Assembly (NCBI RefSeq): GCF_036971445.1
Contig: NC_091472.1
Location: forward strand, 168,640,264-168,704,000
Direction: 5' to 3'
DNA length: 63,737 nucleotides
Source of the DNA: Narcine bancroftii
Taxonomy: Eukaryota
The translations under genes were made by a program, and so were the position numbers. Below the pieces are notes generated by a model. It was not told the DNA's origin. It did not search any database and saw only the letters and a list, made by a program, of their open reading frames with translations. Below, piece by piece: positions 11,007 to 54,706 of this stretch (its first letter is position 1; each line of letters opens with the position of its first letter).

Positions 11007-11090
11007 TAAGATAGATCTGCGCAGTAACTGTAATGGTTCTGGAGCTGTGGGGGAGCTCGTTGATGACCTGAGTAAAAATCCTGGAGCTCT

Positions 11091-14400: not shown

Positions 14401-15150
14401 CCAGCTGCCGAGGCCACTACTGGCAGCCGGCTCTTTTCGTTTCCTGCCTTTTTCCTGTAATAGGTTCATGGCTGGACACATTTATGGGCATTTTTTCCCC
14501 AACGGTGGTGCTAAAAACACTAATCTCTATGCACGTCACCACGTTCCTCCTTCTTTGATTGAGCTGCAGATACAGGAGGCTCGTTGGATGTGGTAGATGT
14601 ATCTGCTGCCAAAACAGGCTGTATTTGAGCAGACTCTTGTGTAGGAGTATGATAGAGCCTGCCAGCGACACGTGCTATATCATGGGGATGGCGGAAATCC
14701 ATGTTAGCGATGGGTATGGTGACACGAACTGGGACCTTTGATAGGAATAGGGTTTCAAAGAGCAGGCAATGAGAATGATCACCCGGCAATGCAAGCATTT
14801 CATTCATTAGGTCTGATGGATTCCTTTCATCCAGGCCTTCCATATTCAAAAGCTGCATGCCACGCTCAAGCCTTGTCAATTCCAGTGTATCCAGCAGAAA
14901 CTGGTGGAACCTGGTGTACTGGTTTTCCGCTGGAGGATTGGCAATAAATTAGCTCACTCAAGATGGGGTAGTGGCGTCCAACGCACCTACAACATGCCAG
15001 AACCTTGTGTCCTCCACCATTATGCCCCAAAGATGAAACTGGGTTTCAGCCTGAATAAGCCAAACCTGAGGCTGATGGGTCCAGAAAGGAGGCAAGTGAA
15101 GTCCAACTGCATTAACTGCTGCGGCTGGTGTAGCTGCGTCCATTATTACT
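11484..15150 (-). pseudogene. Disrupted gag-pol of the Gypsy element
   Basis: Track ORFs 14958..15233, 14520..14879, 13858..14316, 13540..13824, 13114..13533, 12508..12888, 11939..12178 and 11697..11969 are successive frameshifted pieces. Confidence 0.9.
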
Positions 15151-15179
15151 GTAGACTCAGGCTTCAGTTGAACCTTGCA

Positions 15180-15192
15180 GTCGGGGTCACCA
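15180..15192 (-). other. Primer-binding site complementary to the tRNA-Trp 3' end
   Basis: Minus strand TGGTGACCCCGAC begins 2 nt inside the 5' LTR boundary; vertebrate tRNA-Trp ends ...GUCGGGGUCACCA. Confidence 0.8.
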
Positions 15193-15194
15193 AT

Positions 15195-15587
15195 TGTAGC
15201 GGCTACTACTGTAGAGATACTGAAGTAATACAAAAATCACACGCCAGATTAGTCAATTCAAGACTGATTTATTCAGGGTTTACAGGCTTCTTTTATATAT
15301 TGCATGTCCTGGACTCCATGGGACAAGGTGGGATATCACTATGAGATTGCGGCCGATCCATGGGACCGGGAGGTTTAAATTTAGCCTTGTAAGTGTCCCA
15401 CACCTTCCGGCTCAACGTCTCAACAGCTCAATGTGCCATTCCTCGGCACTCGGTATCTCTCACATGCAGTCCATTAGGTAAGTGTGCAGACGTCCGTGTT
15501 ATGGTTCCGCATGCTCGCAGAACCATGCCGGCGACAGTTCGCGTTGCTGCGCTGTGTGCCCACTCGGCCCGCTACACGGCTGCTACA
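15195..15587 (-). repeat. Gypsy 5' LTR
   Basis: TGTAGC...GCTACA termini; adjacent to the primer-binding site. Confidence 0.9.
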
Positions 15588-16034
15588 ATATCTTCTTTAG
15601 TTTGTGTAACTATCAATACAATCTTATCGTCCTTTTTGTTTATATAAGTTTGTTAATAAAATCAATAAAAGTATTTTAAAAAGAATAAAAGACAGATATG
15701 CCCAGTAATTGTAATGGTTCTGGAGCTGTTGGGGAGCTCGTTGATGATCTGAGTGAAAATCCTGGAGCCCTGGTATATGGCAGGGAATTTTAATTCATGC
15801 ACCTTCCTACTCATTACCACAGCACATGGTTGGAATGGGGCAGATTAGTTGTGGGTTTTATTCATGGAGATAATGATGAAGCCAAACAAATGCCTCTTGC
15901 CCAAACAACAACTGCTTGATGGTCGTGTCTGACAGTCAAAGTCACAGTGGGATCAAATGGGCTAAGATAAAAATGGGGAAATAAGATTAACAAGTGGGGT
16001 GGGGTTGTGAACTGTCCAATCTTGAGGGGACAGA

Positions 16035-16975
16035 GTGTCATCTAGCCAAGTTTGCAGATGATACTAAATTGAGTGGAAAAGCAAATTGTACAGTGGTTGT
16101 GGAGAGGCTGCAGAAAGACATAGTTAAGTTAGGTGAGTGGGCAAAGGTCTGGCAGATGGAGGACAATGTTAGTAAATGCGAGGTCATCCACTTTGGCAGG
16201 AAAAATAAAAGAGCAGCTTATTATTTGAATGGTGAAAGACTGCAACATGCCGTCATTGCAGAAGGACTTGGGAGTGCTTGTGCATGAATTGCAAAAAGTT
16301 GGGTTGCAGGTACAACAGGTTATTAAGAAGGCAAATGGAATATTGGTCTTCATTGCTAGAGGAATTGAATTCAAGAGCAAGGAGGTTATGCTGCAACTGA
16401 ACAAGGTACTGGTGAGGCCACACCTGGAGTACTGTGTGCAGTTCTGGTTGCCATATTTGAGGAAGGATCTACTGGCCTTGGAGGCAGTCCAGAGGAGGTT
16501 CACCAGGTTGATCCCAAAGATGAGGGGGTTGACTTACAAGGGAAGACTAAATCAGCTGGTATTATACTCAATCGAATTCAGAAGAATGAGAGGAGATCTG
16601 AGAGAAATGTAAAATTATGGAAGGGATAGATAAGGTAGAGGCAGGAGAATTGTTTTCACTGGTAGGTGAGACCAGATCTAGGGGACAAGGCCTTAAGATT
16701 CAGGAGAGTGGATTCAAAATGGAGACAGATTCAGTGCACTCCAGAGAGTACTGAATCTGTGGAATTCTCTACCCAGGAAAGAGTTTGAGGCTACTTCATT
16801 AAACATATTTAAGGTTCAGTGAAAAAGATTTTTATATAAAAAATGAATCAAAAGATATGGGAAAAAGGTGGGCAGGTGGAGTTGAGTCAATGATCAGATC
16901 AGCCAGGATCTTATTGAATGGTGGAGCAGGCTCCATGGGCCTGATGGCCTACACCTGCTCCTATTTCTTATGTTC
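16035..16975 (+). mobile_element. CR1 LINE 3' fragment
   Basis: LAKFADDTKL, KCEVIHFG, LVRPHLEYCVQFW, LEAVQRRFTRLIP; ends in the CR1-type tail CTCCTATTTCTTATGTTCT. Confidence 0.9.
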
Positions 16976-17019: not shown

Positions 17020-17590
17020 CTAGGAATCAGAATTTATGGTCATGAATTGTTTGTGGCAGCTTCATAGTGGAAACATTCAAAGAAACCTCCTTGCAACAAT
17101 AAATAAAAAGAGTGTTTGAAAAGTCCAAGTAAGGCAGTGTCTGGTTTATTAATCCTTCAAGAATCTGGCAGCGGGGAAAAAACTGCCCTTGTGCCCCTGA
17201 GTGTTCATCTTTAGGCTCCTATACCTATTTCCCCGATGGTAGCAGAGTGAAGAGTACATGGCCTGAGGATGGAGACTGCTTTCTTAAGGCTCCATTTCTT
17301 GTCGATGTCCTCGATGGAATGAAGACTGGTGCCTGTGATGTCGCAGACCAAGTTAATAGCCCTCTGGAGTTTATTCTCACCCTGAGCGATGGCACTTCCA
17401 TACCAGACAGCCATGCAACCAACCAGAATCCTCTCTGCAGTACAACTTTTTGAATGTCTGCGATGACATACCAAATCTCTTCAAAAACCTCACAAAGTCT
17501 AGCCGCTGGTGAGCCTGCTTCATGATTGCATCGACATGGAGGTGCCAGGACAGATCCTCAGAGATGGCGACACCCAGGAACTTGAAGTTT
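17020..17590 (-). mobile_element. Rex1/RTE-like LINE 3' fragment
   Basis: FKFLGVAISEDLSW...KQAHQRL and GHVLFTLLPSGK motifs. Confidence 0.8.
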
Positions 17591-19214
17591 GGAAGTAAGA
17601 TAAAGCAAAGTGAAGGTACTGTCAGTCTAGAGTAATGGTATTCCATGGTTCTGGTTTGGGAGTTTTGAAACACTACCCTCTATGAGTTGCAGTCCTATCA
17701 GGGGATTCCAATTCCATGAAAGGACTGATAAGCAAAATATATTTTCATTTATGCTGATTGTATGTTCTGGATCAGAATTTTCTATATTCTACTGTTTGAT
17801 TACAACTCAAAAACACTTATGCCTTTGTTGTTCTAAACATACCAGGAAATGTAAAAGAGCAGCCCCGAAATGAGCGGCGAAGGGAAACAACCTCTCCATT
17901 TGTAGATGTAGAGCAATTTCTCAACAATTTGTGATGCAGAGAGCTTAACTTAAATTTCTTCCGATGAAATTCAACACACAATCATAAAATGCCTGTATTG
18001 CTATTGGTTGTGTACATAATTGACAACAAAATTAATAACTTTAATGGCAACATTATTGGATATAATTACAGCTATAAATTGAAGTTAAAAGTGTATCATT
18101 TATCACTTCATTGCTGCTTCAGGTGAAGTGCCAGGATCTTGATAGTTGTGTTCATTTCAGTATCTCATATCGTTCTCAAATTATACTGATCCGTTGTGAT
18201 TTTCCATCATGGTTGCAGCCACAATTAGGGGTAATTTCTCCATTGTTTCCAACGGTTTCCAGTGAAGTATCTGCAACTCTTAAGGCCTCATGGGCTCACA
18301 TGCTCTTCACCATTTTCCCCATCTTGAGGCCAATGACAACATGTCAACAAAACAAGCTGAAAGTTAAGGTTGATTTCCTGCTTTTTTCCTTGGAAGTCGA
18401 AAGGACATGTCACTTTTGGCACCAAACTTGATTGCGGGTAGACATTTTGAAGCCTCTTTTTGGTGAATGTATTGTTCAGAAAAAATGAGAGCCGGAATGG
18501 CAGACAAATGTGAAACACTTCATTCTCCTTATTGGCTGCACACATTAGCACAAAACCATAATTATCTGACATTTCAAGCTAAAAAATCAACTATGCTACA
18601 CAGATCAGAACTCGTTTAAGATGAACAAAGTGATGGAATATTTTTAAGAATCCTGTATTATTTTATCAGCCTATATTCTCCCACTTCCCTACCTCCTACC
18701 TGAATGAGTATAGGTCTGTTCGTTTTATAGATTAATGCTGCTTCTCAACTGGGAGAGTAAAAGGAGGAAATTATCCAACAGAAATTCAGAAACTTTTGGA
18801 AATACTAAGTCAGTGAACTCTGTTAACTGCAAAAGGGGAATAAAAATGTATAGTGTATAGAAACAACAAAGTTCACAGGTGCTCACTGATGAAATTGTTG
18901 AAGGGAAAAGAACACCAAAAATCAGCAGGAAAAAGATGAGCAGGAGAAAATTTGAAAAAAAAAGGTTTAATACTCCTTAGTTTGTACTGGACGACCATGC
19001 AATTTCACATGAAAAGGAAGATGAAACCACACACATTACTATTTAAAGTACAATAACAACAGTCTATCATCTTTTCACTAACCAATCACATTTGTATTAC
19101 GATTCCAGTCAAGTCAAACTTTAAGCATTTCTCAAAGAGATTTGGAGATGAATATGAAATTTTGAAATATGACAATGACATAAAATTGTGGTATACAAAA
19201 TAAAGGAAGGGCAG

Positions 19215-31835: not shown

Positions 31836-32085
31836 GAGGGGGATTCAATGTTCACATAATATTTTGAAATGTTGAGAAATGAGGTCGTAGGATACCATAC
31901 ACTTTTGTGTGTTGTGTGAAGTCGATGCAGTGTAATACATTGTGACGTGGCTATACTCTTTACTTCACCAATCTGATTGCTGGATTAACTCTACCAAACT
32001 GTACCAAAACTACCAGACTATCATGTCATAGCTGTGACAAAGCAATTTCATCAATGATATGTGCTGGATGCCTGTAAAAATGTTT

Positions 32086-32135
32086 TGTGGTTTCACTTCC
32101 GTATATATAACGTAATCTGAAAAGTTTGTCAGAGC
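32086..32135 (+). promoter_or_regulatory. Core promoter of the cytokine gene (RUNX, ETS and TATA elements)
   Basis: TGTGGTT 32086-32092, ACTTCCG 32095-32101 and TATATAA 32104-32110; predicted start near 32130-32135, upstream of the ATG. Confidence 0.7.
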
Positions 32136-32198
32136 AGAATGCACTTTAAAGAGCTCAGCCACTTGCTTTCCACGTTCATGTGTCAGAACTGCAAAACA

Positions 32199-32214
32199 AT
32201 GGAACTTGGAGCAG
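32199..32214 (+). CDS. Cytokine coding exon 1 (MELGA + first base of Val)
   Basis: Strong Kozak AAAACAATGG, donor CAG|GTAATT at 32215, TATA box ~90 nt upstream. Mirrors the tiny phase-1 first exon of LIF (MKVLAAG). Confidence 0.8.
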
Positions 32215-35200
32215 GTAATTCTCACTTGCATAGCTATTCTGCTGGTCTCCGACAAGTTTTATGTGGTTATTTTTTTATTTGACATTTAGGAATGATGGTT
32301 CGCTGTGATAGAATATTTAAAGTAATTGCAAGTTTCTTCAGTGTATTGCAGAGAGCAATGTCACTTTAGAGATCAATTGTTGTACTGGTTTTAAACTTTT
32401 TACTTTCTTTTCAGTGGTCCGATTTGTACTTCTGCTGTTCCCTTTATCTTGTCTCAACACCAGTGCAACTCCTGACTTAAACAGAAAAATAAAAAACTGC
32501 TATCAACTGGCAGTTGAACTAAACCACTCTGCTCCTGTCGCACTACAGTCATACGTAAGACATTTTTACCTTTTTGATATAATTGTGAGTTTTACATATT
32601 TAATTTGAAAATCCATATTTCAATTTGGTTTTAGTTCTTGAACTATTAATATGTAATTGATTGAGTTTCTAATCTTTTCTGCAGACCCATTAGCTTTTAT
32701 TTCCAGTTTAGAGATGTGATGGAGCAGTGGATTTACTTACAGTTTTCTCCGCTGTGACACAGGATTTAGCTACTTTGATAGGATGAAACTTTAATGCAAC
32801 TGCCAATAGGAGTGGGTCAATATCAAATAATGGTTCCATGCCATCATGATGTTAGTTATGACCTCTGAATGTTAGTTATGACCTCTGAACACTGTGGTCA
32901 CTTCTCCCTCTTGTGGTCACCTTGATGGAAGATGGGGATGGCTGGAGATCCTCATGGTCAGGAGGGAGAGAACATTGTTCTGGATATTGATCTCAGGAAG
33001 AGGCCTAATGGGAACTTGTGAATCCATGTTTCATCAAGTGTGCTGGGTTATGTGAAATAGAATTGATAGACCTGCTTCATTAGCTGGAAAGGTATGGTTA
33101 GTGGACTTGTTGTCAAGACCTTTGGGCAATTGATCCAAATGTGTGAAGTGTCAGTTCACATCCCAATATGACTATAATCAGATAATAAATCTTATAAATA
33201 AAGCACTAGTGATTGAAATACTAAGAGTTTGCTGTAAAAACTCAAGGAGGAACCCAAACTATCTTGCAGATGACACCAGTATAGTTAATTTTTCGCCTAG
33301 GAATTCATTTTAAAATGTGCAGGTAAGCCTTGCATCTTCCTGTTCACCTCCTCAATGCTTGCAGTTTTGCCATCTGTCATGCTTTTTTTTTTATCTCCAG
33401 TGATCCTGTTTGACCAATGTACACTTACCATTCTAAGAAATCTCAAATTGTAACCAGTTACTAAGTTCAAGACCAATAGAAATCACTTGAACATTGAGTG
33501 TTATGGACCAAGTGCAGGCAATGTGATAGGTGTGGAAGGATTTGATGGACTGATTGGGATGCAATATGACCATGAAGAGGCAATAAATGTCGGTTTGAAG
33601 GTCCTTTATATAAATTGGTTGACAGATCTGAGACACGGTAATTCCTTGCATCAGATCTTCTGATAATTTCTTTGTGTTGAAGGCCAATTATTGGGTCAAT
33701 ATGGATAAAGACTCCTCTATCAAACTGGACCTTGGATCTCCTGAAAAGCTGTTGATGTTCAGACTGGTTCACCTTAAATAACTAAACTGAGGTGAAAAAC
33801 ATGACAACAGCCAATAGAGGTGCTGAAACTGGTGGAAGTTGATGAACCCCAGGTGAATTGCCATGACACAGGGATGGCGAAATGATCAGAGGGCAAACCC
33901 CATCCCCTGCCATTAGCAGCATGTGGGCAACTACTCAATACCCTTTGGTGCCAAGTTGTTGTCTACCTTTGTAGTCAAGAACTTGTGTGTAGCATTAGAA
34001 ATAGCCTTACTCAGAGATAGGGAAGCTTTTGGAGGAAATTCTGAAGGACAACATTTATATGGCTGGGATTAATGGGAAGGACCAAAATGATTTTGTGCAG
34101 CAAATCATGTCTCACAAATCTGAATGAGGTTTTTTTAAGGAGGTGTCTAACAAAATGAATGAAGGCAGCAAGATAGAGAAAATATACATGGATTTAAGTA
34201 AGACTTTTTCTGGTTAATCCAGAGGTTAAGGCACAAGGGACCCAAAATATGCAATGTTAATCCAAGATTTCCTTGGTGATAGAGGCAGAAGACAGTGGTG
34301 GGTTCTACATGGCACTTGGCAGGGATTGGGGGTGGGACCCCTGTTGTTTGTAATATATATAAATGAGTTGGATGAGAATGTAGGTGGAGAGTTAGTAAGA
34401 TTACAGACCACATGATAATTGGTGGATGGTAGATGGCGAAAAAGATACAGTGGGACATAGATCAGCTGAAAAGTTGAGCGGAGGTGCAACTTAATTGATT
34501 TAATGTACTTTGGGAAGTCTATAGGACTCATTAAGTAAAATGGCAGGGATCTGAGGAGCATTGGTATACAGATTGACTTTAGAAGTGCAAGTCCATAGCT
34601 TGCTGAACGTGTTGATGCAGATAATCAGTATAGTGCAGAAGAATTTGGGATGCTTGTTTTCATGGCCCAAGGCAATGAGTATGAGAGTTGTCATGCCATG
34701 TTGCAGCTAGACAAAACTTTGGTTAGATCACATTTGGATTATTGTGCACAGTTCGGGTTGTCGAACAACTTGAAGGATGTGGTAGCAATAAAAAGAGTGA
34801 AAAACAGTTTCCCCAGTTTGATACTGAGAGTGGAAGAATGTAGTTAAAAGGAGAGATTGGATAGGGTAGATGTATTCTCACTGGAATATAGGAGACCAAG
34901 GGGTGATCTTGTAGATGTTTTTTAAATTATATGGGGCATTGAAAGGATAGATGATCAGGCAATTTTCCCAGGCCAGGGTAGGTTAGAGCCAGGGAACATA
35001 GGTTTAAAGTGAGAAGGGAGAAATCTGATGGGCAAGTATTTTCACACTGAGGGCAGTAGTTATTATGGAACAACCTGCCAGATGAGTTGGGTAGAGGTCG
35101 GCACAATTGTTGCATTTAAAAAAAAATTCGACAGGTACTTGGATAGAAAAGGAGTGGAGGGATATGAGCTAAAGCAGGCAAATAGGTTTAGCACAAAGAG

Positions 35201-36511
35201 GTAACATGGTCAATATGGATGAAGTTTCTGTGCTGTATGATTCCATAATTCAGAAGGGAAGAAAAATTTAATTCAATTTATATTGGCCCCTTCATGAAGC
35301 AAAATATGCTGGAATGAACTTAAAAATTCTTGTTTGTCTTAACATTAGCTGTACCTCATGCAAATCTTTCAAAATAAGATGGTTAGCGTGGTATGTGTGT
35401 CACAGCTGCTTCAATATAATATAAGGAGTATTAATTGTAGCAGGATGTCAGGATGATCTTCCATCTTCCCGCTTCATGATAGACCGGTTGAGAGAGGGTA
35501 ACATCTCACCCCACCTAGAGTTGGCCTCTGTTATCTCTGCAATAATGCTGAGAGTGTTACGACATGGGCTAGAGTTAAGGTGGTGAGGATGAATGAAAAA
35601 CAGGAAATGATACAAGTCATAAAAGGAGTCTAAAGTGAAAATCCATTCACATATGGTTTGAAAAAGTAATGTAGAAATACATTAAAATTTCCAGTAAACT
35701 AGAGGTGGTTGTTTTACCAACAAAACATTTCCTGTTTAATAAAGCAAGATTTAAACTTCTTTAGCATGTTCCTTCAAATAAAACAGAACTTACTAAGTAA
35801 CATCTCAATTGATTTTGCTGTGACTTTCAGTCTCATAATTTTGATCTGGGATTGCATTCGTATTTGGATCCTTAAAGCCTACTTTTATGTTGCAGATTTC
35901 GATCACTCTTCTCTCTGTTTTTCTCATTTGAAGTCTCTGTAAAATGCTTGTAATGTTTATCAACATAAAAGGTGTTACATCATTGTAAGTTGTTATTCAG
36001 TTTTATTAATACAGTTGTCTTTTTCTTTCAGCTTTCTGTCCAAGGACCGCCATTTAATAATGCTCTGATAAAAAATCATGTATGCCACAGAAATGTGAGC
36101 TGTCTTCCCAAGAGGCATCTGAACAAGATGGAGGAAAATGAAATGCTTAAGAAAATATTTATTGGTGTGCAACAGTTCACGTGGCACTTGAATAATACAA
36201 TTATTCAGCAGAAGAACTTGAACCCTTCTTCAAAGCTTCAATTCGAGCTTGAAAATATTCGGACATATCTCATGTCACTGGATGCCAACCTGCTGTCAAT
36301 TCTGCGCAACAAAGGCCATCATGTTTCCAGACAATTTGAATGTTCCTCAGGACACAGAAATCTCTCAGATAAACCGTTCTTACAAAAGCAACAAGGATGT
36401 GTAATTCTGACAAACTTTAAACACTATATTGCACAAGTGTTAAAGTACTTTCATCATTTATTAAGGAACTTTTCCCATTTGTCATCTACAAGCCATAAGA
36501 CCTCAGAATAA
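32199..36511 (+). CDS. Three-exon IL-6-family long-chain four-helix cytokine, LIF/OSM/M17/cardiotrophin-like, 211 aa: join(32199..32214,32415..32554,36032..36511)
   Basis: Spliced ORF MELGAVVRFVLLLFPLSCLNTSATPDLNRKIKNCYQLAVELNHSAPVALQSY|LSVQGPPFNN...QQKNLNPSSKL...KPFLQKQQGCVILTNFKHYIAQV...KTSE*. All junctions are GT-AG with pyrimidine tracts, intron phases are 1 and 0, and 16+140+480=636 nt. Signal peptide present. Motifs Y-x3-QG-x-PF, Q-x2-LNP and F-x2-K-x2-GC match LIF-type cytokines (human LIF YTAQGEPF, QKILNP, FQKKKLGC). Exact orthology cannot be decided from this window. Confidence 0.9.
32415..32554 (+). CDS. Cytokine coding exon 2 (signal peptide and helix A)
   Basis: Acceptor ACTTTCTTTTCAG|TG and donor TAC|GTAAGA; in frame with track ORF 32414..32608; hydrophobic VRFVLLLFPLSCL. 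Confidence 0.9.
34090..35250 (+). mobile_element. Decayed CR1 fragment in cytokine intron 2
   Basis: GPLLFVIYINELDEN and LDKTLVRSHLDYCAQFG motifs, then CR1 3' UTR. Confidence 0.85.
36032..36511 (+). CDS. Cytokine coding exon 3 (AB loop, helices B-D, stop)
   Basis: Acceptor TCTTTTTCTTTCAG|CTT; 159 codons to TAA, in frame with track ORF 35972..36511; QGPPF, QKNLNP and FLQKQQGC motifs. Confidence 0.92.
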   Translation, partial: LSVQGPPFNNALIKNHVCHRNVSCLPKRHLNKMEENEMLKKIFIGVQQFTWHLNNTIIQQKNLNPSSKLQFELENIRTYLMSLDANLLSILRNKGHHVSRQFECSSGHRNLSDKPFLQKQQGCVILTNFKHYIAQVLKYFHHLLRNFSHLSSTSHKTSE

Positions 36512-36539: not shown

Positions 36540-36795
36540 GCATTTTTAAAGGGGACTTAAAGGGAAATGTTTATTTTTACATAGAAAGTGGTTGATGTCT
36601 GGAACTCACACCCAAAGAAGATGGCGGAATCAAGTACAATCATTATATTTAAGAGATATTTAGACAGGCACTAGAATAAGCAAGGTACATCCTAAAGAGG
36701 GCAAATGGGATGTGCAGGTGGGAATAAAGGGGTTGTCATGGACATAATGAACTGAAGACCGCGTGTCTGTGCTTGCACAACTCTGTGACTTTATG
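36540..36795 (+). mobile_element. CR1 3' end directly after the cytokine stop codon
   Basis: TTTTTACATAGAAAGTGGTTGATGTCTGGAACTCAC...ATTTAAGAGATATTTAGACAGGCA...CTCTGTGACTTTATGACTC. Confidence 0.7.
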
Positions 36796-37091: not shown

Positions 37092-37268
37092 AAGGGGTGG
37101 CCAACCTTTCCATTTTTAATTTGGACCTAGAGCACGGTAACAGGCCATTTCGGCCAATGAGTCTGTGCCGCCCAATTAACCTACACACTTGGTAGGTACT
37201 TGTGGGCTGAAATGGCCTGTAACTGTGCTGTAGGTCTAAATTAAAAATGAAAAGGTTGGCCGCCTCTA
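37092..37268. repeat. Fold-back element with ~65-bp inverted arms (hAT-like ends, SINE/LINE-like core)
   Basis: AGGGGTGGCCAACCTTTCCATTTTTAATTTGGACCTAGAGCACGGTAACAGGCCATTTCGGCC versus GGCTGAAATGGCCTGTAACTGTGCTGTAGGTCTAAATTAAAAATGAAAAGGTTGGCCGCCTCT. Confidence 0.8.
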
Positions 37269-41859: not shown

Positions 41860-44030
41860 AGGACAGGTGACAGGAGTATGTGTCGGGGAACATTTTTGGT
41901 CCAGTGATCAAAAGGCTTTTAGTTTCAGCTTAATTATGGATAAGGATAGGTCTGAATCTCAGTTTGAGATTCTAAATGGGAGAAAGGCCAATTATGAGGA
42001 AATGAGAAAAGTTCTAGAAAGCATTGGTTGTTTTTTTTTCTAGCAAGGATGTGTTCATTAAGTTGAAGGCCTTCTAAGGTGAAATTTTGAGAGTACAGAG
42101 TTTGTATGTTTCTGTCAGGATTACAGGCAAAGTTAACAGGCATAGGGAACCTTGGTTTTTGTGGGATATTGGGGATTTGGTTCAGATGGTGTATAGCAGG
42201 TATAGGCCATATTGGAGCAAATGAGGTATTGAGTATTAAAAAATGCAAGAAAAAAAATTAAGAAGGAAATCAGGAAGGCTAAAAAAAAGATGAGGTTGCT
42301 TTGGCAGCAATGTGAAGGAAAATCATTACAACTTCTACAGGCATATTTAGACCTAAAGGATGGTAAGGGACAAAATTGGTCCCCTTGAAGATTAGAGTGG
42401 TTGACTATGTATGGAGCCAAAGAGATGGGGGAGATCTTACATTTTTTTGGATCACTATTTGCTCAAGAAACTGACACAGAGTTGTGGGAAGCAAGGAAAG
42501 CAAGCAGTGAGGTCATGGAACCTGTACAGGGGAGGTACTTGCTGTCTTAAAACAAATAAGGGCAGATAAATCCCCAGGGCATAATAAGATATTATTTCAG
42601 ACCTTGGGGGATGCTAGTGTAGAAATTGCAGGGATTCTGGCAGAAATATTTAAAATGTCCTTAGCCATGGGTGTGGTGCCAGAGGATTGGAGAGTAGCTT
42701 GTTTAAAATAGGCTCCAAAAGTAACCCTGGCAATTCTAGTAGATAAATTATTGGAAGGTGTTCTCAGAGATGTACAAGTACTTGGATAGCCAGGGACTGA
42801 TTAGGGATAGTCAATGTGGCTTTGTTCATGGTAGGTCAATGTTTAGCCAACCTCATAGTTTTTTGAGGTAACCAAGAAAGTTGATGAAGGAAAGGCTGCT
42901 AATGTTGTGTACATGGACTTTAGTAAGGATTTTGATAAGGTCCCACATGGGAGGTTAATCAGGAAGGTTCAAATGCTTGGTATTCCATATGACATAGTAA
43001 ACTGGATTTGACATTGGCCATGTGGGTTAAGCCAGAGAGTGGTGGTGGATGATTGCTTCTCAGACTGGAAGCCTGTGTGTCTTGGGGATCAGTGTTGGGA
43101 CAATTGTTGTTTGTCATCTATATCAATGATCTGGATGATAATGTGGTAAATTGGATCAGCAAGTTTGCAGATGGCACTAAGATTGGATGTGTTGTGGACA
43201 GCAAGGAATGCTTTCAAAGCTTGCAGAGGGATCTGAACCAGCTGGAAAAATGGGCTGAAAAATGGCAGATGGAGTTTAATACCGACAAATTTGAGGTGTG
43301 GTATTTTGGAAGGACAAAGAAAAGTAGAATGTACACATTAAATGTTAGGGCACTGAGGAGTGTGGTACAACAGAGGGTTCTGGGAATACAGAAACATAAT
43401 TCCATAAAAGTGGTGTCACAGGTGGATGGGGTTGTAAAGAGAGCTTTTGGCATATTGGCCTTCATAAATCAAAGTATTGTGTACAAGAGTTGAGATGTTA
43501 TAGTAAAATTGTATAAGACATTGATGAGGCCAAATTTAGAGTATTGAATGCAGTTTTGGTCACCTAACTACAGGAAAGATATCAATAAGATTGAAAGAGC
43601 TTAGAGAAGATTTACTAGGAGGCTGCCGAGACTTCAGGAACTAAGTTACAGGGAAAGATTAAACAAGTTATGACTTTATTCCTTGGAGCACAGAACAATG
43701 AGGGGAGATATACACAATTATGAGGGGTGTAGATAGAGTAAACGCAAGTTGTTTTTTTCCCCCTGAGGTTAGGTGAGATACAAACCAGAGGATGTGGTTA
43801 AAAGTGAAAGGGGAACATTAGGGGGAACTTTGTCACACAGAGAATTTTGGGAAGTGATGAATGTGGGCTCAATTTTCACGCTTTAAGAAAAATGTTGACA
43901 GACACATGGATGGGAAGGGTATGGAGGGCTATGGACTCGGTGCAGGTCAGTGGGACTAGGCAGAATAATAGTTTGGCACAGACCTGAAGGGCAGAAGGGC
44001 CTGTTTTCCTCTCCTGTAATATTCTATGGT
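41860..44030 (+). mobile_element. Long 5'-truncated CR1 LINE (endonuclease end, RT, 3' UTR)
   Basis: GQVTGVCVGEH, DKSPG, YMDFSKDFDKVPH, GSVLGQLLFVIYINDLD, SKFADGTKI, WAEKWQMEFN; many stops. Confidence 0.92.
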
Positions 44031-46026: not shown

Positions 46027-46865
46027 GACATTTTGGTGCCCGCAGTTTGGTTCTGGATATTTTGGTGCTGGGCATTTTAACAATAAAACACTTCTGTAAC
46101 CCCTCAGACATTTTGGCATCCACAGTTTGGCACCAGCTCTCATACTTGGCGAAGGACGTGGCTTGTAATTTATTATAATTTTAATTAAATATAGTAATTA
46201 TTAAGTATTGATTAAAATTGTTTCTTGGCGTTAACAGTTAGGCCATAGCAACATTCATTTATTATACTTATAATGAAGTGAGGAGCAGTGCTTCAGGCTG
46301 TCGTGTGACCCTGAACTCGGGACAGTGGCTATCACTCGGTCACATCAAACTGACTGATATGGCACTATGGGCGCTGGAGGCTTACCAGCGATGACTGAGT
46401 CAATGAATCAACAGGACCGGGAACAAGAGGGAACCAGGTGGAGCAGGACGGGGGGGTAACTGTGTGGAGGGGACTGGGGGCAGGTGGAGGGGACCAGCTG
46501 GCAGAGGGGGACTGGGAGCAGAGGTGATCAGGGATCATGAGGGTATCGGTGTCCGGTCCCAGCCCTGGGACAACTTGCCTCTGCCACCCTGAAAGGGCTC
46601 AGGAATGGGTTCCCTCCTACCGTCTGCCGCCGCCGCTTACCGCCAAATGCTGGTAAGCCTCCAGCACCCATAGTGCCGTGTCCATCAGATTGACATGATA
46701 GAGCGACAGCCGCTGTCCCGAGTGCAGGGTCCTGCACGACAGCCTGAATTTCTGGTCCTCGATGTTTAATAAGTGAATAAACTGTTAGCACCAAAACGTC
46801 CAGCACCAAACTGTGGGCGGCAAAATGTTTGGTGCCAAATTGTGGAAACCAAAATATCCTAGACC
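46027..46865. mobile_element. Putative non-autonomous DNA transposon with repetitive inverted subtermini
   Basis: 46027-46069 and 46787-46829 are ~43-bp inverted copies built from ~10-bp TTTGG units; GC-rich interior; no TSD found. Confidence 0.55.
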
Positions 46866-47565: not shown

Positions 47566-48554
47566 TGTGACAGAGTATATAGATAGATTTTTGGGAGATA
47601 AATTGAGACAGTTTTTTTTAGTGTAGGTTTCATGCAAACACTTTAAAACAACATTTATTTAAAATACTGGAGCTCTGCTCATGCTAGAACAGGAACAAGA
47701 CAAGCTGGAAAGCTTGTGGAAAAACCCCATTTGGAATATGGATTGTGAGTGCTTGGTTCAGCCTGGTCAAGGTTCATGCAAGAGGAGAAGACTGGCTGCC
47801 TAATGTTTCACTTGAAATAAGAGAAACAGAAAGGTGGTGACCTGAAAGAAAGAGGTTATCATCTGGAGAACCCTGAGGGGGCAAGTTTCTTCAGCAAGAC
47901 ACTGAAGTGGCTGATTGAAAAGGAATCAGTTGTGGTGTCCAGTGTACAACAAATCTCTCTCTGAAAACCGACATGAATCTTCCTAACTGATGACCATTTA
48001 CCTTTCAAGCACCAAAGCCTGGTGAACTTTATAAATGTTAAATTCTGTGCACAGAAATGTGCGCAACCAGTGAATTTGGAAGAATGAGAAGTGAGAATGA
48101 ACTGTGAACCAAAGAACTTTTCTGAACTTACACACACATTACATACACGTGCGCTTAGCATTAGAAGGGGGTTGATTTAGGTTAAGTAAGTCAACAGTGA
48201 TAAGTTAAAGGTTGATTCTATTTTCATGTTTAAAGATAATTAAAAGTTGTGATAGTACAGACCTATCACCAATGTATATAGTTACAGTATCTAGAGTGTA
48301 ATGACTGTGCTTACAGCGATTGGCTGAGAGCTTAGCCACGCCTACTGTCTGGGCCTTAAAGGGTTGTGCCCCTAGCCAGGTCGGATCATTCCGGACTGGT
48401 CGGCCACCTGTGAAGAGCTCCTGTCTTTTGCTAATAAAAGCCTTGGTTTGGATCAACAAGTCTTTGGTTCTTTCGACGAGCTCTACAAAAGTAACTATTT
48501 GTCTTGGTGAATATCTATTGCTGCTGGGTTTTGGGGTCCTCTGGACTCGTAACA
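47566..48554 (+). mobile_element. Solo LTR (family A, ~745 bp net) carrying a nested solo LTR
   Basis: Termini TGTGACAGAG...CTCGTAACA; 4-bp TSD TGAC (47562-47565 and 48555-48558). Confidence 0.8.
48248..48487 (+). mobile_element. Solo LTR (family B, 240 bp)
   Basis: TGTGATAG...CTCTACA termini, AATAAA, 5-bp TSD AAAGT. Confidence 0.9.
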
Positions 48555-50743
48555 TGACAACAGTCAAGTCACCTTTATTTATCATTCATACCATAACTGC
48601 TAATGCAATGCTTAGTAAAAACAAGATGGCATTTCTCCAGGACCATGGAGCAAATTTACATAAATAAGAGTTAAATAGTAAAGCATAATGCAATAAAAAT
48701 CCATGATACATGCATGTTCTAAGAATTGAGGAGACTGATGGCTTGTGGGCTAAAACTGTTTCATAATTTGGACGTGTGGGCCTGAATGCTATGGTACCTC
48801 CTTCCAGATGCTAGAAGGGAGGAAAGTTTACAAGAGGGGTGTGAAAAGTACTTTACAATGTTATTTTCCCTACTGCATGCATTGTGTATTGTAGATGTCC
48901 GTCATGGTTGGAAGCAAGACCCCAATAATCTTCTCCGCTGACTTTACCATCCCCTGCAGGGTCTTACAGTCTGAGATGGTACAGTTTCCAAACCACGCGG
49001 TGATGAAATTACTCAGAATACTCTTGATACATCCTCTGCAGAAGGTAGTGAGGGTGGAGGATGGGAGATGAACTTTCCTCAGCCTTCACAGGAAATAAAG
49101 GCACTGCTGGGCTTTCTTGGCTACGGAGCTGGAGTTGAGTGACCAGGTGAGATTCTCCACAAAGAGTATACCAAGAAACTTGGTACTCCTGATGACCTTA
49201 ACGTTCGAGCTGTCAGCGAGAGTGATTTCCCCCAGGCCCTCCTGAAGTTGACAACAATTTATTTTGTTTTATTAATGTTCATATGCAGTTGTTGGCTCTG
49301 CACCAGTCCGTTAGTGACTGGACCTCATCTCTGTACGCTGACTCTTCGTTCTTGCTGATAAGAGCCCACAATAGTCATGTCATCAGTGAACTTGATAATG
49401 TGGTTTGAGTTGTGTTGGGCTGCACAGTCATGAGTCGGCAGAGTGAACAGCAGTGGACTAAGCCCACAGCCCTGGGGGGGGGGGGGGGGGTGGGGCCCCA
49501 TGCTCAGTGTGATGGTCTTGGAAATGCTGTTACCGATCCAGACTACCTGAGGTCTCCCCATCAGGAAGTCGAGAATCCAATTGCAGAGGCAGGTGCCAGG
49601 CCCAGCAGGTTCAACTTCCCTACCAGGTTCTGAGGTATGATTTTACTGAATGCCAAAATGAAGTCAATAAACAACATTTGAATATATGCGTCCTTGCTTT
49701 CCAGGTGGGTGAGGGTTAGATGGGGGATGGTGGTGAAGGCATTGTCCGTAGAGCTCTAAATGGATCTATATGTGAATGGCAGGGGTCCAGAGATGAAGGC
49801 AGCAAGAGCTCGATGTGCCCCATGATGAAACTCTCAAAGCACTTCATGATGATGGACGTGAGTATGACAGGAGGATAGCCATTGAGGCAAGACACTGACA
49901 ACTTCTTCGGCACGGGGATGATGGTGGTGGCTTTGAAGCACATTAGAAACACGGCGCTGCTCAGGGAGATGTTAAAGATATCAGTGAGAACATCTACCAA
50001 CTGAGCTGCACATCCCCTGAGCACTCTGCTGGGAATGTTATCCGGACCACCAGCTTTCCATGGGTTAACTTTGCCTAACACTCTCCTCACATTGGCCACT
50101 ATAAGATACAACACTTGATCATTTGGAGGAGAGGTGGTCTTCTTCGTTGCCACATAATGTTTTTGCCTCAAATGCATGTAGAAGTTGTTTAGTGTAGTTG
50201 GGAGGGAGGCATCACCAGCACAGGCAGGTAGTGTAGTCTTGTGTTTAGTGATGTCTTGAATGCCCTTCCACATGCATCCTTGCTGTCCTGAAAGTGACTA
50301 TGAATTTGCTTGACACATGTACGTATTGCATCCCTGATGGCCTTAGACAGCTCAACTCTTGCAATAGCTAGGGCTACCTTGTCACCCATTCTGAAGGCAG
50401 AGTCTCTGCTCCTTACAAGCTCACGCTCCTCTGCAGTCATCCATGGCTTCTCATTAGAGTGAGTAATGATGGTCTTGGGCACAGTGATGGCGTCAGTACA
50501 CTTACTAATGTAGCTGGTCACTGATGCGGTATACTCTTCTAAGTTGATGCAGTTGCCATTGGTTGCTGCTTCCTTGAACATTCGCCAGTCAGTATGCTTG
50601 AAGCAGCCTGAAGTGCATAGATGGCTCCTGCTGGCCAGGTTTTAACCTGCTTCAGAACTGGTCTGGAGTGTCTGATGAGTGGTCTGTATGCTGGGGTTAG
50701 CATTACAAAGATATGGTCTGAGTATCTAAGATGAGGACAGGAC

Positions 50744-51072
50744 TCACCAGGGCTTTGGTGCTTGAAAGGTAAATGGTTATCACTTAGGAAGGTTCTTGTC
50801 AGTTTTCAGAGAGAGATTTGTTGTACACTGGACACCACAACTGATTCCTTTTTAATCAGCCACTTCAGTGTCTTGCTGAAGAAACTTGCCCCTCAGGGTT
50901 CTCCAGATGATAACCTCTTTCTTTCAGGTCACCACCTTTTTGTTTCTCTTATTTCAAGTGAAACATTAAGCAGCCAGTCCTCTCCTCTTGCATGAACCAC
51001 AAGGGCCTTGACCAGGCTGAACCAAGCACTCACAATCCATATTCCAAATGGGGTTTTTCTACAAGCTTTCCA
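50744..51072 (-). repeat. Inverted internal copy of solo LTR A (47706-48025)
   Basis: Reverse complement aligns along its full length with few differences; track ORFs 47859..48161(-) and 50762..50995(+) share the same peptide. Confidence 0.9.
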
Positions 51073-51589
51073 CAACGTCTAATGTGTTCGCTTGTCTCAT
51101 AGCAAAGTCCACATACTGATGTAATTTAGGTAGCAATGACTTGAGGTTTGCCTGGTTGAAATCCCCAGCAATAATAAACAGCCCATCAGGGTGTATGGTC
51201 TGCAGTTTGCTTGGAGCCCAGTACAGTTCCCAGATCTCCTCTTTAGCATTAGCGCTGGGTGAGGGAGTGGGGGAGAGGGGGGAGGATGTACACTCCAACT
51301 ATGAGGACCATGGTAAATTCCCACGGTAGATAAAATGGTCTACATCTGACAGTCACAAATTCCACCAGTGTTGAGCAGTGTTTGGAGTCTAGTACAGAGT
51401 CCTTAATCCATTCTGTGTTGCTGTAAACACAGAAGCCACCATCATGGACTTTGCCACACAGAGCAGCATCTCTGTCAGCCTGGGAACCTGTTGCTGAGCC
51501 AAGTTTCAGCAAAGACCAAAACTCAGCAGTCCCTGTACTCATGCTTTGCGGACCTGTAGAGTCAGATGTGGTCCATTTTGTTTTCCAGG

Positions 51590-51829
51590 TGTGATAGTAC
51601 AGATTCTATCACCAAAGTGTATATGTACATATGTACAGATGGTAGTGTAGGATGACTGTGATTGGCTGAGAGTGTAGCCATACCTACTGGCAGGTCTTAA
51701 AGGATTACTCCTAGCCAGACCAGGTCATTCTGGACTGGTCAACCCTACTTGTGATATGCTCCAGTCTTTTAGTTAATAAAATCCTTGGTTTGGATCAACA
51801 AGTCTTTGGTTCTTTCAACGCGCATTACA
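51590..51829 (+). mobile_element. Solo LTR (family B variant, 240 bp)
   Basis: TGTGATAG...ATTACA termini; 5-bp TSD CCAGG (51585-51589 and 51830-51834). Confidence 0.9.
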
Positions 51830-52970
51830 CCAGGGAACAGACTTTGGCGAGCAGGATGGATGGGAGACCTGGCAGCAGGGATTCTCTGTCAGTCTAGTGC
51901 AACTCCCTGCTCAATTACTGTGCTTTATGCACTGCTTCTGTCTTCTCTGCAACCTGAGGCTCTAAGATCTAGTCCACACAGCAGCCTGTGATCGAGTAGC
52001 TTGACCCACAGATCTTCCTGGAGGTAAGTAGAGGAGTTTCTGAATATCATTAAGTACTGCCCTTTATGTGCCTTCCAGCCCCAACTTCAGGAATCAGGAG
52101 TCTTGGTTCAGTCTTCACATCTGTTGTCCAAACACAGACTTGCTTGTTACATGCAGAAATCATAACTGCCTTGTACAATGTGTCTTCAAATGTTGGAGAA
52201 CATGTTTGTCACCAACACTCAATCTAATTTCCAGGTCTTAAAGGGTCTCTGATGAGCAAATGACAGAATTGAGGAGTCTCAATGAAAGGTCTTGACCTGA
52301 AATGCTGTCTCTCCATTTCCTTTCACAGATGCTACCTGACTAGCTGAGTCCCTCCAGCAACTCGACGTTCGTGTATGTAACGAGTCGATTTACACATGAT
52401 ATGAATCTGAAATTTACAAGTTTAAATGCGGATAGAAGTTTTGTCCACGGGGACGGGTGAATGCAGTCAGGCATTATTGCCGTAGTCTCACTGCCACTGG
52501 TTTCGGTGGTATTAACATCTTTTTTGTCTCTGCCCCTATTCCTCATGCATAACAAAGACAGTGTGTTGATTTTCTCACTGATAGGAGATCTGCCTTTGCC
52601 ACCAAATTAAGTGAAAGTGAGAAGAACAAGTGTTAAGATAACACATATCAGGGGCGATGAGGTGAGATATATTATCAAATGTGTTATGTTATTCTTTTGC
52701 TTATAAACATTTTAAAATGTGGGTGAAGAAATGCTTCATCAGAAGGCTATTAATAATTAAAGTACCTCCATGGGCAGGTCACAAAGTCCTTCCTAACTGT
52801 GTGAAAGGATGGCAATTTTAGATGGCATACAGGCTTAAGATTTGAGTGTGAGTTTATTGTCATATACAAAAATGCAATGTAATTGCTTAAAATTCTTTCT
52901 TGCTTCAGTTAAAGAGGTACAGAAATGACGACTGCAAATATTAAATTTACCCAGTACAGAAATATAAAGT

Positions 52971-53211
52971 TGTAGAGCTCGTCGAAAGAATCAAAGACTT
53001 GTTGATCCAAACCAAGGCTTTTATAAGCAAAAGACAGGAGCTCTTCACAGGTGGCCGACCAGTCCGGAATGATCCAACCTGGCTAGGGACACCAACCCTT
53101 TAAGGCCCAGACAGTAGGCGTGGCTTAGCTCTCAGCCAATCGCTGTAAGCACAGTCTAGATACTGTAACTATATACACTATATACATTGGTGATAGATCT
53201 GTACTATCACA
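52971..53211 (-). mobile_element. Solo LTR (family B, 241 bp) nested in a Rex-like 3' fragment (~52840-53560)
   Basis: Reverse complement of 48248-48487 with few differences; 5-bp TSD AAAGT (52966-52970 and 53212-53216). Confidence 0.9.
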
Positions 53212-54706
53212 AAAGTACAGACTGATTAAATAAATATTCGGAGTTACATTTAATGCAAGAAAAAAGCGGTGCTTCGAAAAGACAGAGAATGGTGGTTCTG
53301 GAGTATATGATTAGGGTATAGGGAGAGGTTCAAAACCCTGATAGTTGTTGGATAATAACTTTTTGAACCTAGAGGTGCTGGACTTCAGGCCTCTGTACCT
53401 TTATCCTGAAACTAGCAGCAAGAAGAGCAGGTTGATGGATGCTGCCTTTTTGAGGCAGTGGCTCACATCAATGTCTTCAATGGGAGGGAGGGGAGAGCCT
53501 GTGAGGTCCTCAATGGATGGGAGAGCAGATCCCGTGTTTGCTTTTTCAGCAGCTTCCTTTTAGTTATTTGTCTGTTCGTGGACAGCAATTGTAGGAATCT
53601 GATTTGAGATCAACCTGCTCAAACCAGAGGAATCTCCCTCATTGGCAAAGCTTTCTAAGTATGAGGTTCCAGCATTGAAATTCATTTCTTGATGGGTCGA
53701 TTATACCTCACTCTGTCTTCACTGCGCAGTGAAACCTTGTGTTCCTTTATGAAGTGTGAAGACACAATCCTAATGTAAGGGTTTGAATTTGAATCAACAG
53801 CAATTCCCTTTCCTTCAGACGATACATTAATTTCCTCCAGCTGTTTATCTTTATTCCTTTATGAAAGATATTAAATTGTCCATATTTCTCATGAGACTAT
53901 AAAGATATATTTAGAGGCATGAATTAATTAATAATCAGCAAGTTAGATGAAGAATCACACTTCATTCATGTTTTCAAGCTACTTTTTGTTCAGTCAGTTG
54001 GGCAACCTGAACAACAATGCTTTACAAACTTTGACTTGTACATGACCTGTTGCATATCCCTCATAGCAACTCGAACAATGAACCAGATGCTACAATGGAG
54101 TCAGACACTCAAATGGTGGAACTGATAAAGAAGTGCAAGTGCTCCACATTGCAATATTTCAAGGATGTGAACCACATCTTGAAATACCTCCGTTAACTTT
54201 ATGCATCTATTTGGATAAAAGGTGTAATGAAGATAGGAGGCAAAATGTAGATCACTTAACTAACTGCACCTTTGTGAAACATCCCTGCATTCAACAATGT
54301 ACTCAGTTTTTCCATTAGTGTTGCAATACTTGATTGTTAGTTTGAAGACATTAGAACTGAAATATGTAATATTTCACAGGCAAACTCCCTTATAACAATT
54401 TATAACTTTCATTATTTGAATTCCATCCAACATTTTGACAACTGAATACATACAGCAAAAATGATCTGCCCTTACTTCTCTTACAATTTCAGTTTTGTTA
54501 TGATGTTTGTGCTATTGGCTATAGGTCTAAGTTCCACCTCATCGTCTAACCCAGATTAGTACTTTCCTACTGAGTGTGCAGTTAAAGCTGCATGGTAAGT
54601 TCTCAAACATTAATCTGCTGCAAAGAATTGCTGGATGTACGCAGCAGATCAGGTGGCATCATGGGTAGAAATGGTCAGTCAACGTTTCAGGTCTGAACCC
54701 TTTATC

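Follow-up and report, generated by a model that had tools for sequence, protein, structure and literature searches.

Structure and annotation of the gene

The analysed window, a 63,737-nt stretch of the Narcine bancroftii genome (contig NC_091472.1, positions 168,640,264 to 168,704,000), contains a real cytokine gene with three coding exons and introns in phases 1 and 0 (Table 1). The exons comprise 636 nt and encode, in spliced translation, 211 amino acids followed by a stop codon; among 16 combinations of junctions, only this one placed GT..AG at the ends of both introns and left no stop codon other than the terminal one. The product is 100% identical to residues 21–231 of an N. bancroftii protein annotated by NCBI as 'uncharacterized protein' (P0003), so the NCBI model uses the same junctions. 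Nine shark orthologues, from the genera Heterodontus, Pristiophorus, Heptranchias, Carcharodon, Rhincodon, Scyliorhinus, Mustelus, Chiloscyllium and Stegostoma, showed 51–59% identity over 85–92% of the query, with similarity far above chance (E 8.8e-41 for the first orthologue), and aligned without gaps over both splice junctions. The spliced three-exon reading frame proposed in the earlier note is thereby confirmed. The gene had also been called hidden: it is indeed unnamed in NCBI and its start is probably wrong, but the gene itself was already annotated.

The NCBI start probably lies 20 codons too early. Eight of the nine shark orthologues start at a Met matching the ATG at 32199, from which translation would begin; at a further in-frame ATG at 32178, the Met matches the annotated start of the Pristiophorus protein (P0005). 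The N-terminus is hydrophobic (Kyte–Doolittle means of 2.1–2.8 for 9-residue segments starting at residues 3–11), and a putative signal peptide would be removed after Ala23 (32465–32467).

Table 1. Features of the cytokine locus; positions are those of the window, and residues are numbered in the 211-aa product
Feature	Position	Strand	Remarks
TGACGTGG, candidate CRE/ATF-like site	31943..31950	+	weak
GGAAGTGAAA, ETS-IRF composite-like site	32091..32100	-	directly adjoins the TATA box
TATA box	32102..32110	+	consensus match only; 37 nt 5' of the first in-frame ATG
Upstream in-frame ATG	32139..32141	+	start of the 231-aa NCBI model; adds 20 aa
Coding exon 1	32199..32214	+	16 nt; start-codon context A at -3, G at +4; followed by a phase-1 intron
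Exon 2	32415..32554	+	140 nt; remainder of the putative signal peptide, then helix A; phase 0 at its end
Exon 3, coding part	36032..36511	+	159 aa and TAA; AB loop, helices B, C and D
QGxPF, start of AB loop	36041..36055	+	from alignment with LIF
Cys70, AB loop	36083..36085	+	presumed partner Cys175 in helix D (36398–36400), by analogy with LIF
Cys76, AB loop	36101..36103	+	presumed partner Cys156 in the CD loop (36341–36343)
Site III FxxK, F168/K171	36377..36388	+	invariant in 10/10 chondrichthyan sequences; aligns to LIF FQKK
Candidate poly(A) signal	36723..36728	+	first AATAAA 3' of the stop codon; the next is at 37043

Upstream of the gene, GGAAGTGAAA, which we take to be an ETS-IRF composite-like motif, belongs to a motif class with 9 matches in the window versus 3.86 expected. 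The evidence is weak for TGACGTGG, presumably a CRE/ATF-like motif, with 2 window matches versus 0.48 expected and as many reached in 11 of 100 shuffles. A bacterial promoter scan, not applicable to this gene, gave no match.

No tandem paralogue was detected by tblastn in the window, and a search of its 1685 ORFs of at least 25 aa with five family profiles, covering some 32 kb 5' and 27 kb 3' of the gene, revealed no second family member (best unrelated E 0.47). Pfam analysis of all 448 ORFs of at least 52 aa identified pieces of retroelements, the cytokine and an ELL fragment, with sub-threshold matches to SDH_C and LDLRAD1_C; domains of the MTMR3, HORMAD2, CASTOR1 and TBC1D10A types, which would mark the LIF-OSM neighbourhood, were absent from these 448 ORFs, a set that short exons escape. 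A crude exon finder proposed 18 candidates in the window, none of them convincing except the gene's own.

Family membership, predicted fold and cysteine pattern

Against the LIF_OSM and CNTF profiles of Pfam, P0003 passed the former at 28.1 bits (cut-off 23), its sole family match, and matched neither CNTF nor PRF above the gathering score; exon 3 alone gave 22.1 bits with LIF_OSM (cut-off 23), and sequence P0004 fell below the gathering score for both CNTF (21.9 vs 22.7) and PRF (20.5 vs 22). LIF_OSM matched all ten orthologues (best E 2.8e-13), PRF nine (best E 6.6e-6) and CNTF five (6.5e-8). In a search of the PDB, the orthologue profile matched LIF at 64–69 bits and CLCF1 at 23 bits, while OSM and CNTF gave no match at E<=10. 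The structural model (pLDDT 85.7) is a predicted long-chain four-helix bundle, as had been anticipated, with helices at residues 27–56, 87–115, 119–145 and 167–207. Its five best fold matches are all LIF (Z 19.9–21.4; rmsd 1.7 over 158 residues for the top match); OSM structures gave Z 15.2–17.7. The alignment used for folding contained LIF-like sequences, and an earlier fold from 10 close sequences (pLDDT 45) was discarded.

For comparison, a set of 64 sequences was assembled: the 10 chondrichthyan sequences found, of which Narcine is the only ray, 50 of 68 similarity hits and 4 named M17 proteins. Eighteen hits were left out as fragments, near-duplicates, fused or mis-predicted models, or, in two cases, because of uncertain origin. 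All comparison sequences were chosen by similarity to the shark profile, and unnamed ones were labelled from Pfam, sequence features and PDB profile searches; since the 'OSM-like' profile itself matches LIF in the PDB better than OSM (98 vs 67 bits), that label is presumptive. The best of four group profiles was M17 for eight chondrichthyan sequences, OSM-like for one and LIF for one; the cardiotrophin (CT)-like profile was never the best and scored lowest for six of the ten. Profile–profile scores were close (LIF 150.2, M17 142.8, OSM-like 134.7, CT-like 133.3), and pairwise identity was 21–24% to each group. In the Atlas, the top-ranked cluster was cardiotrophin-2-like by features (0.95 vs 0.94 for LIF) and cardiotrophin-1 by structure. 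The M17 and OSM-like profiles also match mammalian LIF best, so that LIF as the best match is not diagnostic. Nor would the exon layout be, since three coding exons with phases 1 and 0 are probably common to LIF, OSM, CLCF1 and the cardiotrophins.

All the motifs reported in the earlier note (QGPPF, QxxLNP, FxxK and the helix-D GC) are present in the protein. The intact spliced ORF is conserved in ten sharks and rays, with the FxxK of the LIFR-type site III invariant; this motif is common at the start of helix D to all LIFR ligands and is therefore not specific to LIF, OSM and M17. Pro59, within QGxPF, aligns to the AB-loop proline of LIF, P73, which contacts LIFR (PMC10022904, in the part available).

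Four mature cysteines are invariant across the cartilaginous-fish sequences. Cys70 occurs in 10/10 of them, in 16/17 LIF, 12/12 OSM-like and 15/15 M17 sequences and in none of the 10 CT-like ones; the helix-D GC, assigned correctly to the LIF/OSM/M17 type, is likewise common to those three groups and missing from all ten CT-like sequences. Cys76 and Cys156, present in all ten chondrichthyan sequences and in 0/54 others, are a pair private to cartilaginous fish and would form a disulfide bond. The helix-C cysteine, found in 16/17 LIF, 9/12 OSM-like and 7/15 M17 sequences, is absent from the chondrichthyan ones (0/10). As noted earlier, the N-terminal cysteine pair of LIF is missing; the mature N-terminus carries no cysteine, and the LIF arm with its two cysteines tethered to helix C has no counterpart. 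Narcine has an extra Cys34, shared with two of the nine orthologues. The cardiotrophin-like look of helix A holds for a Tyr found in 10/10 chondrichthyan and 4/9 CT-like sequences and in 0/39 of LIF, OSM and M17. Conversely, the residues W, R and D in helix D (9/10, 8/10 and 9/10 CT-like sequences) and a late AB-loop Trp (8/10) occur in none of the ten chondrichthyan sequences; in the register checked against CLCF1, these positions match residues that CLCF1 requires to bind CNTFR-alpha (PMC10022904). By its sequence, the Narcine protein is thus an IL-6-family member with the cysteines of LIF, OSM and M17 and without cardiotrophin-type CNTFR-binding residues.

The elasmobranch proteins named 'leukemia inhibitory factor-like' or 'IL-6 subfamily cytokine M17' in NCBI and UniRef share the four invariant mature cysteines and FxxK with the Narcine copy, which differs in being unnamed and faster-evolving, and in its 20 extra annotated N-terminal residues and Cys34. 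Tetrapod LIF (PF01291; PDB 1EMR, 7N0A) is alike in fold, FxxK, QGxPF, the helix-A LN and the AB-loop/helix-D cysteines; at about 24% identity, the ray protein differs by lacking the N-terminal arm and both arm-to-helix-C disulfides and by having a longer helix D and the extra Cys76/Cys156 pair. M17 of ray-finned fish resembles it in helix B and the AB-loop/helix-D cysteines, but lacks the PF of QGxPF and carries its further cysteines at the N-terminus, in helix C or in the tail, so the statement in the available text of PMC9601804 that the shark protein has four cysteines like M17 is true for number and not for position. OSM shares FxxK and the AB-loop/helix-D cysteines, and the AB loop resembles non-mammalian OSM-like sequences, while the N-terminal Cys tethered to helix C and the basic C-terminal extension are missing from the ray protein. 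Cardiotrophin-2/neuropoietin, PRF, CLCF1 and CNTF share the helix-A Tyr, QGxPF, FxxK, a short N-terminus and the lack of a tethered arm, but differ in the helix-D and AB-loop residues described above and lack the cysteines.

Phylogenetic position and alternative origins

On the phylogenetic tree, the chondrichthyan sequences form one clade (support 100/99), in accordance with the proposed cartilaginous-fish lineage, and Narcine has its longest end branch (0.44). The suggested novelty is partial: the protein is unnamed in NCBI, but it groups one-to-one with sharks published as LIF, two of the orthologues appearing as such in the phylogeny in the available part of PMC9601804 and the Chiloscyllium sequence matching by eye the 'LIF' listed in its supplement. 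Rooted on the CT-like sequences, the tree has the topology (chondrichthyan,(M17,(LIF,OSM))), which is the species order. The split of chondrichthyan and CT-like sequences from M17, LIF and OSM has support of 97/86, which, the set containing no IL-6, IL-11, CNTF, CLCF1, CT-1 or placental LIF/OSM, would fit membership of the cardiotrophin lineage equally. LIF and OSM were joined in 949 of 1000 bootstrap trees, and the chondrichthyan clade joined LIF or M17 in only 8 and 9. With the mature region only and another aligner, the order among groups changed, and AU tests rejected none of the groupings of the chondrichthyan clade with LIF (p 0.171), M17 (0.147) or OSM (0.162). In the parts of the literature available, a cartilaginous-fish OSM/LIF orthologue, perhaps the same gene, was reported with UB 85 and BPP 0.59 (PMC6238376), shark LIF was placed near M17 (PMC9601804), and M17 was seen as possibly descended from the ancestor of LIF and OSM (PMC4929537).

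The explanation that we consider likely is that this single-copy gene for a secreted cytokine descends, in cartilaginous fish, from the ancestral gene behind M17, LIF and OSM. That ancestor would have become M17 in ray-finned fish, and a later tandem duplication would have produced LIF and OSM in tetrapods. Alternatively, the LIF/OSM duplication could predate the split of sharks and bony fish, which would make LIF (or M17 alone) the one-to-one orthologue of this gene, whose partner was lost or lies elsewhere. This is improbable: although LIF is the solved structure that the protein resembles best by sequence and fold and has the highest segment log-odds total (59.9), the helix-A LN is shared with 11/15 LIF sequences and no other group, and the AU test rejects neither grouping, the bootstrap trees rarely unite the clade with LIF or M17, the ORFs of the window contain no second family member, the N-terminal and helix-C cysteines of LIF are missing, and the best match to mammalian LIF is shared with M17 and OSM-like profiles. 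We find it a little less credible still that the gene is a member of the cardiotrophin lineage (CT-1/CT-2/CLCF1) whose product signals via CNTFR-alpha with LIFR/gp130, its cysteines being ancestral or convergent. Not one of the ten sequences has the CT-type W, R and D of helix D or the late AB-loop Trp, all ten carry the LIF/OSM/M17 cysteines, and the CT-like profile is the best for none of them. Their position next to the CT-like sequences in 971/1000 bootstrap trees would be produced in an unrooted tree by an early-branching LIF/OSM/M17 gene as well; the helix-A Tyr, QGxPF, the short N-terminus and the first Atlas matches speak for this lineage, as does a CT-1/CT-2-like gene inferred for the jawed-vertebrate ancestor, though not reported, in the available text of PMC6238376.

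The earlier note had described the protein as a mosaic, and its segments do match different groups best: early helix A (4.0) and helix C (20.8) score highest against CT, the AB loop (13.1) against OSM, helix B (20.3) against M17 and helix D (30.1) against LIF. Control sequences are equally patchy, however: helix C of LIF and OSM likewise scores highest against CT (22.5 and 19.8), as does helix B of M17. The patches ignore exon borders, and the N- and C-terminal halves, each with its own tree, are placed alike and weakly (63 and 65). Some of the supposed marks vary among orthologues: PPF, taken as CT-like, occurs in only 2/10 of them and also in 1/11 LIF-like sequences, and LNP in 1/10. The OSM-like extension past helix D did not hold either, as the tail after the helix-D Cys (25–45 residues in chondrichthyan sequences) overlaps all groups in length and has 1–4 basic residues versus at least 8 in 9/12 OSM-like sequences. 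Recombination or gene conversion between LIF/OSM-type and cardiotrophin-type genes is thus very improbable, and the mixed appearance is best explained by early branching, with the helix-A Tyr, QGxPF and the short N-terminus probably being retained ancestral states. The chance that this is a pseudogene or a chance ORF is negligible: the long end branch would fit it, but the ORF is intact, with canonical splice sites, a TATA box and all the invariant residues of the family.

Predicted receptor binding and possible relation to alpha-receptor independence

The best reading of the protein is that of a secreted LIFR/gp130 ligand. Judging from LIF, CNTF and CLCF1 structures, F168/K171 of site III and Pro59 would bind LIFR, helices A and C would bind gp130, and the heterodimer would activate JAK/STAT3; the protein would contain putative C70–C175 and C76–C156 disulfides. 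By analogy with teleost M17, inducible expression and roles in macrophage activation and nerve injury may be expected. No functional study of shark or ray LIF/M17 was found in the literature searched, which lay largely outside subscription journals.

A disulfide-tethered N-terminal arm, proposed in the available part of PMC10022904 to free gp130 binding of LIF and OSM from an alpha-receptor, is absent from all ten cartilaginous-fish sequences. Lacking both this arm and the CNTFR-alpha site, the protein may depend on some other alpha-receptor or partner, or may have reached independence by another route, to which the private C76–C156 bond may contribute. That it retains an intermediate step in the evolution of alpha-receptor independence is a tentative and rather unlikely idea; if true, the bonds would form a ladder, from none in cardiotrophin-type proteins, through the AB-loop to helix-D bond in sharks and an added arm to helix-C bond in bony vertebrates, to two arm bonds in LIF.

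Altogether, this is a mostly ordinary gene, for which the analysis adds a name and a probable correction of the start codon to the existing annotation. The cysteine positions, with two private cysteines and no arm to helix-C bond, of which the literature examined, in its available parts, contained no mention, would be a modest refinement rather than a new cytokine class. As a lineage probably at the base of LIF, OSM and M17, the cartilaginous-fish protein would be a natural ligand for dating the alpha-receptor independence of LIF and OSM.

Gene structure and other elements of the window

The three exon positions proposed in the earlier note were borne out by a junction test, since among 16 combinations only 32199–32214, 32415–32554, and 36032–36511 combined GT..AG borders for both introns with a single stop codon at the end. 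The spliced cytokine ORF (intron phases 1 and 0) encodes 211 aa, identical to residues 21–231 of an NCBI "uncharacterized protein [Narcine bancroftii]" with which exon 3 is 100% identical; the gene is already modelled by NCBI without a name, as had been suspected. The 211-aa form is likelier to be the product than the longer NCBI model because of the spacing between the TATA box and ATG 32139, the contexts of ATG 32178 and ATG 32199, and the start of 8/9 shark orthologues at the Met matching ATG 32199. The in-frame stretch that precedes the main ATG (32178–32198) shows conservation with the annotated start of the sawshark orthologue P0005 (MCQNC..MELG), a hint that the 5' leader is conserved or that a longer form can start further upstream. 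Next to the TATA box lies an ETS-IRF-like site; this and a CRE-like site, both consensus matches only, would fit inducible expression.

No neighbouring gene or tandem paralogue was found within the 63,737-nt window. The Ty3/gypsy-type element is flanked by long direct repeats of 83–87% identity. In the foldback element, for which Atlas returned no usable match, the minus-strand ELL-like stretch terminates near a GTAAG donor-like site and is possibly a transposon-captured exon.

Positions of start-codon features and other elements in the window
Feature	Position	Strand	Remarks
TATA box	32102	+	probably only a few bases between expected cap site and ATG 32139
NCBI model start, in-frame ATG	32139	+	annotation
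Second in-frame ATG	32178	+	weak context
ATG of 211-aa form	32199	+	A at -3, G at +4
Broken Ty3/gypsy-type retrotransposon	10901–15775	-	DUF7041, RT, RNase H, integrase fragments, several frames
LINE-type fragments	15991–16609, 43053–43490, 49089–51605, 55936–60169		RT matches
ALKBH8_N matches	17380–17679, 49089–49268		probably LINE 3' ends
L1 ORF1-like frame	59379–59777		by eye
Foldback element	46028–46858		~830 bp, nested inverted arms; inner arms both carry ELL-like sequence
Elongation factor ELL first-exon-like sequence	46620–46784	-	Pfam ELL positions 1–39, 24 bits (cut-off 22.9)
Degenerate inverted ELL-like copy	46254–46388	+	53% identical
MITE-like short self-complementary elements	5954–6154, 37093–37267		
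Dispersed repeat	47706–48488, 50744–51072, 51587–51829, 52970–53212		

Family assignment and orthologues

In Pfam, the NCBI protein matched LIF_OSM (28.1 bits, cut-off 23) and no other family. Among solved structures, LIF was the only match to exon 3 alone (E 1.5e-7), and a profile of ten cartilaginous-fish sequences matched LIF (64–69 bits) and CLCF1 (23 bits), with no match to OSM or CNTF. The predicted model, folded with 66 sequences (pLDDT 85.7), has four long helices; Foldseek and VIA ranked LIF on top (Z 19.9–21.4; best rmsd 1.7 over 158 residues), followed by CNTF (19.5), IL-11 (19.2), CLCF1 (18.5), and OSM (15.2–17.7), a narrow lead that is not independent evidence because the folding alignment contained LIF-like rows. 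In Atlas, a cardiotrophin-2-like cluster (0.95) came just ahead of a LIF cluster (0.94).

Nine shark proteins with 51–59% identity, six named "leukemia inhibitory factor-like" and three "IL-6 subfamily cytokine M17", form a single clade with the ray protein (100/99). The ray protein, though unnamed, belongs to an orthologue group that is already known and is not a new mosaic cytokine. In earlier studies, two chondrichthyan sequences are treated as LIF and placed near M17 (PMC9601804; its Chiloscyllium LIF matches shark orthologue P0011 by eye), OSM/LIF orthologues in cartilaginous fish receive moderate support in a whole-family tree (UB 85, BPP 0.59; PMC6238376), M17, active on macrophages, may derive from a LIF/OSM ancestor (PMC4929537), and zebrafish M17/LIF drives STAT3 following optic nerve injury (PMC4146584). 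The dating of LIF origin to amphibians in PMC8226699 conflicts with the shark genes only in part, since on the best reading they predate the LIF/OSM split. An unnamed fragment (P0021, 100 aa) has QGPPF and the C-x5-C-LP spacing of the shark proteins, is far more divergent, and perhaps represents a further chondrichthyan lineage or a paralogue.

Sequence characters and lineage position

The ten chondrichthyan rows were compared with 17 LIF-like, 12 OSM-like, 15 M17, and 10 cardiotrophin-type (CT-like) rows, drawn from 50 of 68 profile-search matches plus four named M17 sequences; unnamed rows were labelled by us. The observations behind the earlier proposal of a distinct LIF/OSM/cardiotrophin mosaic were confirmed, and its interpretation was upheld only in part. 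Helix-A Tyr is a genuine CT-like trait (10/10 chondrichthyan, 4/9 CT-like, 0/39 other rows). GPPF varies among the orthologues: PPF occurs in 2/10 of them and in 1/11 LIF-like rows, and PF, being common to chondrichthyan (10/10), LIF-like (9/11), and CT-like (9/10) rows, is ancestral. LNP is found in 1/10 chondrichthyan rows. The supposed OSM-like extension is a tail of 25–45 residues past the helix-D Cys, with 1–4 basic residues and a length overlapping LIF-like (17–40) and CT-like (23–40) tails, whereas 9/12 OSM-like tails carry at least 8 basic residues; in the predicted model it simply extends helix D. The best-scoring group differed between segments, control groups were equally patchy, and N-half and C-half trees placed the chondrichthyan rows similarly, weakly in both, with no sign of recombination in either analysis. 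These controls and trees speak against a mosaic origin, and an early branch retaining ancestral states explains the pattern.

AB-loop Cys70 is present in 10/10 chondrichthyan, 16/17 LIF-like, 12/12 OSM-like, 15/15 M17, and 0/10 CT-like rows, and the helix-D GC, correctly recognised earlier as LIF/OSM/M17-type, in 10/10, 15/17, 12/12, 15/15, and 0/10, respectively; as sequence characters, these favour LIF/OSM/M17. CT-type helix-D Trp, Arg, and Asp and the late AB-loop Trp (9, 8, 9, and 8 of 10 CT-like rows) occur in 0/10 chondrichthyan rows. In a register set here by profile comparison, the Arg, Asp, and AB-loop Trp are counterparts of CLCF1 residues described in PMC10022904 as required for CNTFR-alpha binding. 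The best of four group profiles was M17 for eight chondrichthyan rows, OSM-like for one, LIF for one, and CT-like for none; profile-profile scores spanned a narrow 133–150.

A careful tree gave ((chondrichthyan, CT) 97/86, M17 100/97, (LIF, OSM) 95/80). Rooted on CT, it follows species order, as one ancestral gene duplicated later on the tetrapod line would give; because the tree has no outgroup, its chondrichthyan+CT split is equally compatible with the chondrichthyan protein being a CT-lineage member. Another aligner altered the group order for the mature region, and AU tests rejected no alternative (p 0.171, 0.147, 0.162). A lamprey CT-2 homologue, reported in PMC13081863, implies that the CT-2 line arose before sharks did, so a separate shark CT-2 would be expected. 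Four unnamed rows (P0028, P0037, P0041, and P0054) group together (99/97) as the sister of the reptile/bird OSM-like rows, which, with LIF-like rows of similar depth, suggests that the LIF/OSM split predates amniotes.

Proposed receptor engagement

PMC10022904 proposes that LIF and OSM owe their independence of an alpha-receptor to an N-terminal arm that is fastened to helix C through disulfides. Unlike these, the chondrichthyan protein has only ~3 residues ahead of helix A, and its helix C contains no Cys (0/10 rows versus 16/17 LIF, 9/12 OSM-like, and 7/15 M17); unlike CT-like proteins, it lacks the CNTFR-alpha site residues. The C76/C156 pair is private (10/10 chondrichthyan, 0/54 other rows). 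CT-1 signals in many cells without an alpha-receptor; therefore, the absent arm need not mean dependence. The reading of the protein as an intermediate state toward alpha-receptor independence seems unlikely.

The ORF is intact and conserved and has a hydrophobic N-terminus and invariant F168/K171; its product is predicted to fold into four helices. The protein would be secreted following cleavage at Ala23 and would form disulfides C70–C175, as in LIF, and C76–C156. By analogy with LIF, CNTF, and CLCF1 complexes (PMC10022904), site III with AB-loop Pro59 would bind LIFR and helices A/C would bind gp130, an engagement that may activate JAK/STAT3. Taken as a whole, the protein is probably a secreted LIFR/gp130 ligand signalling via JAK/STAT3.
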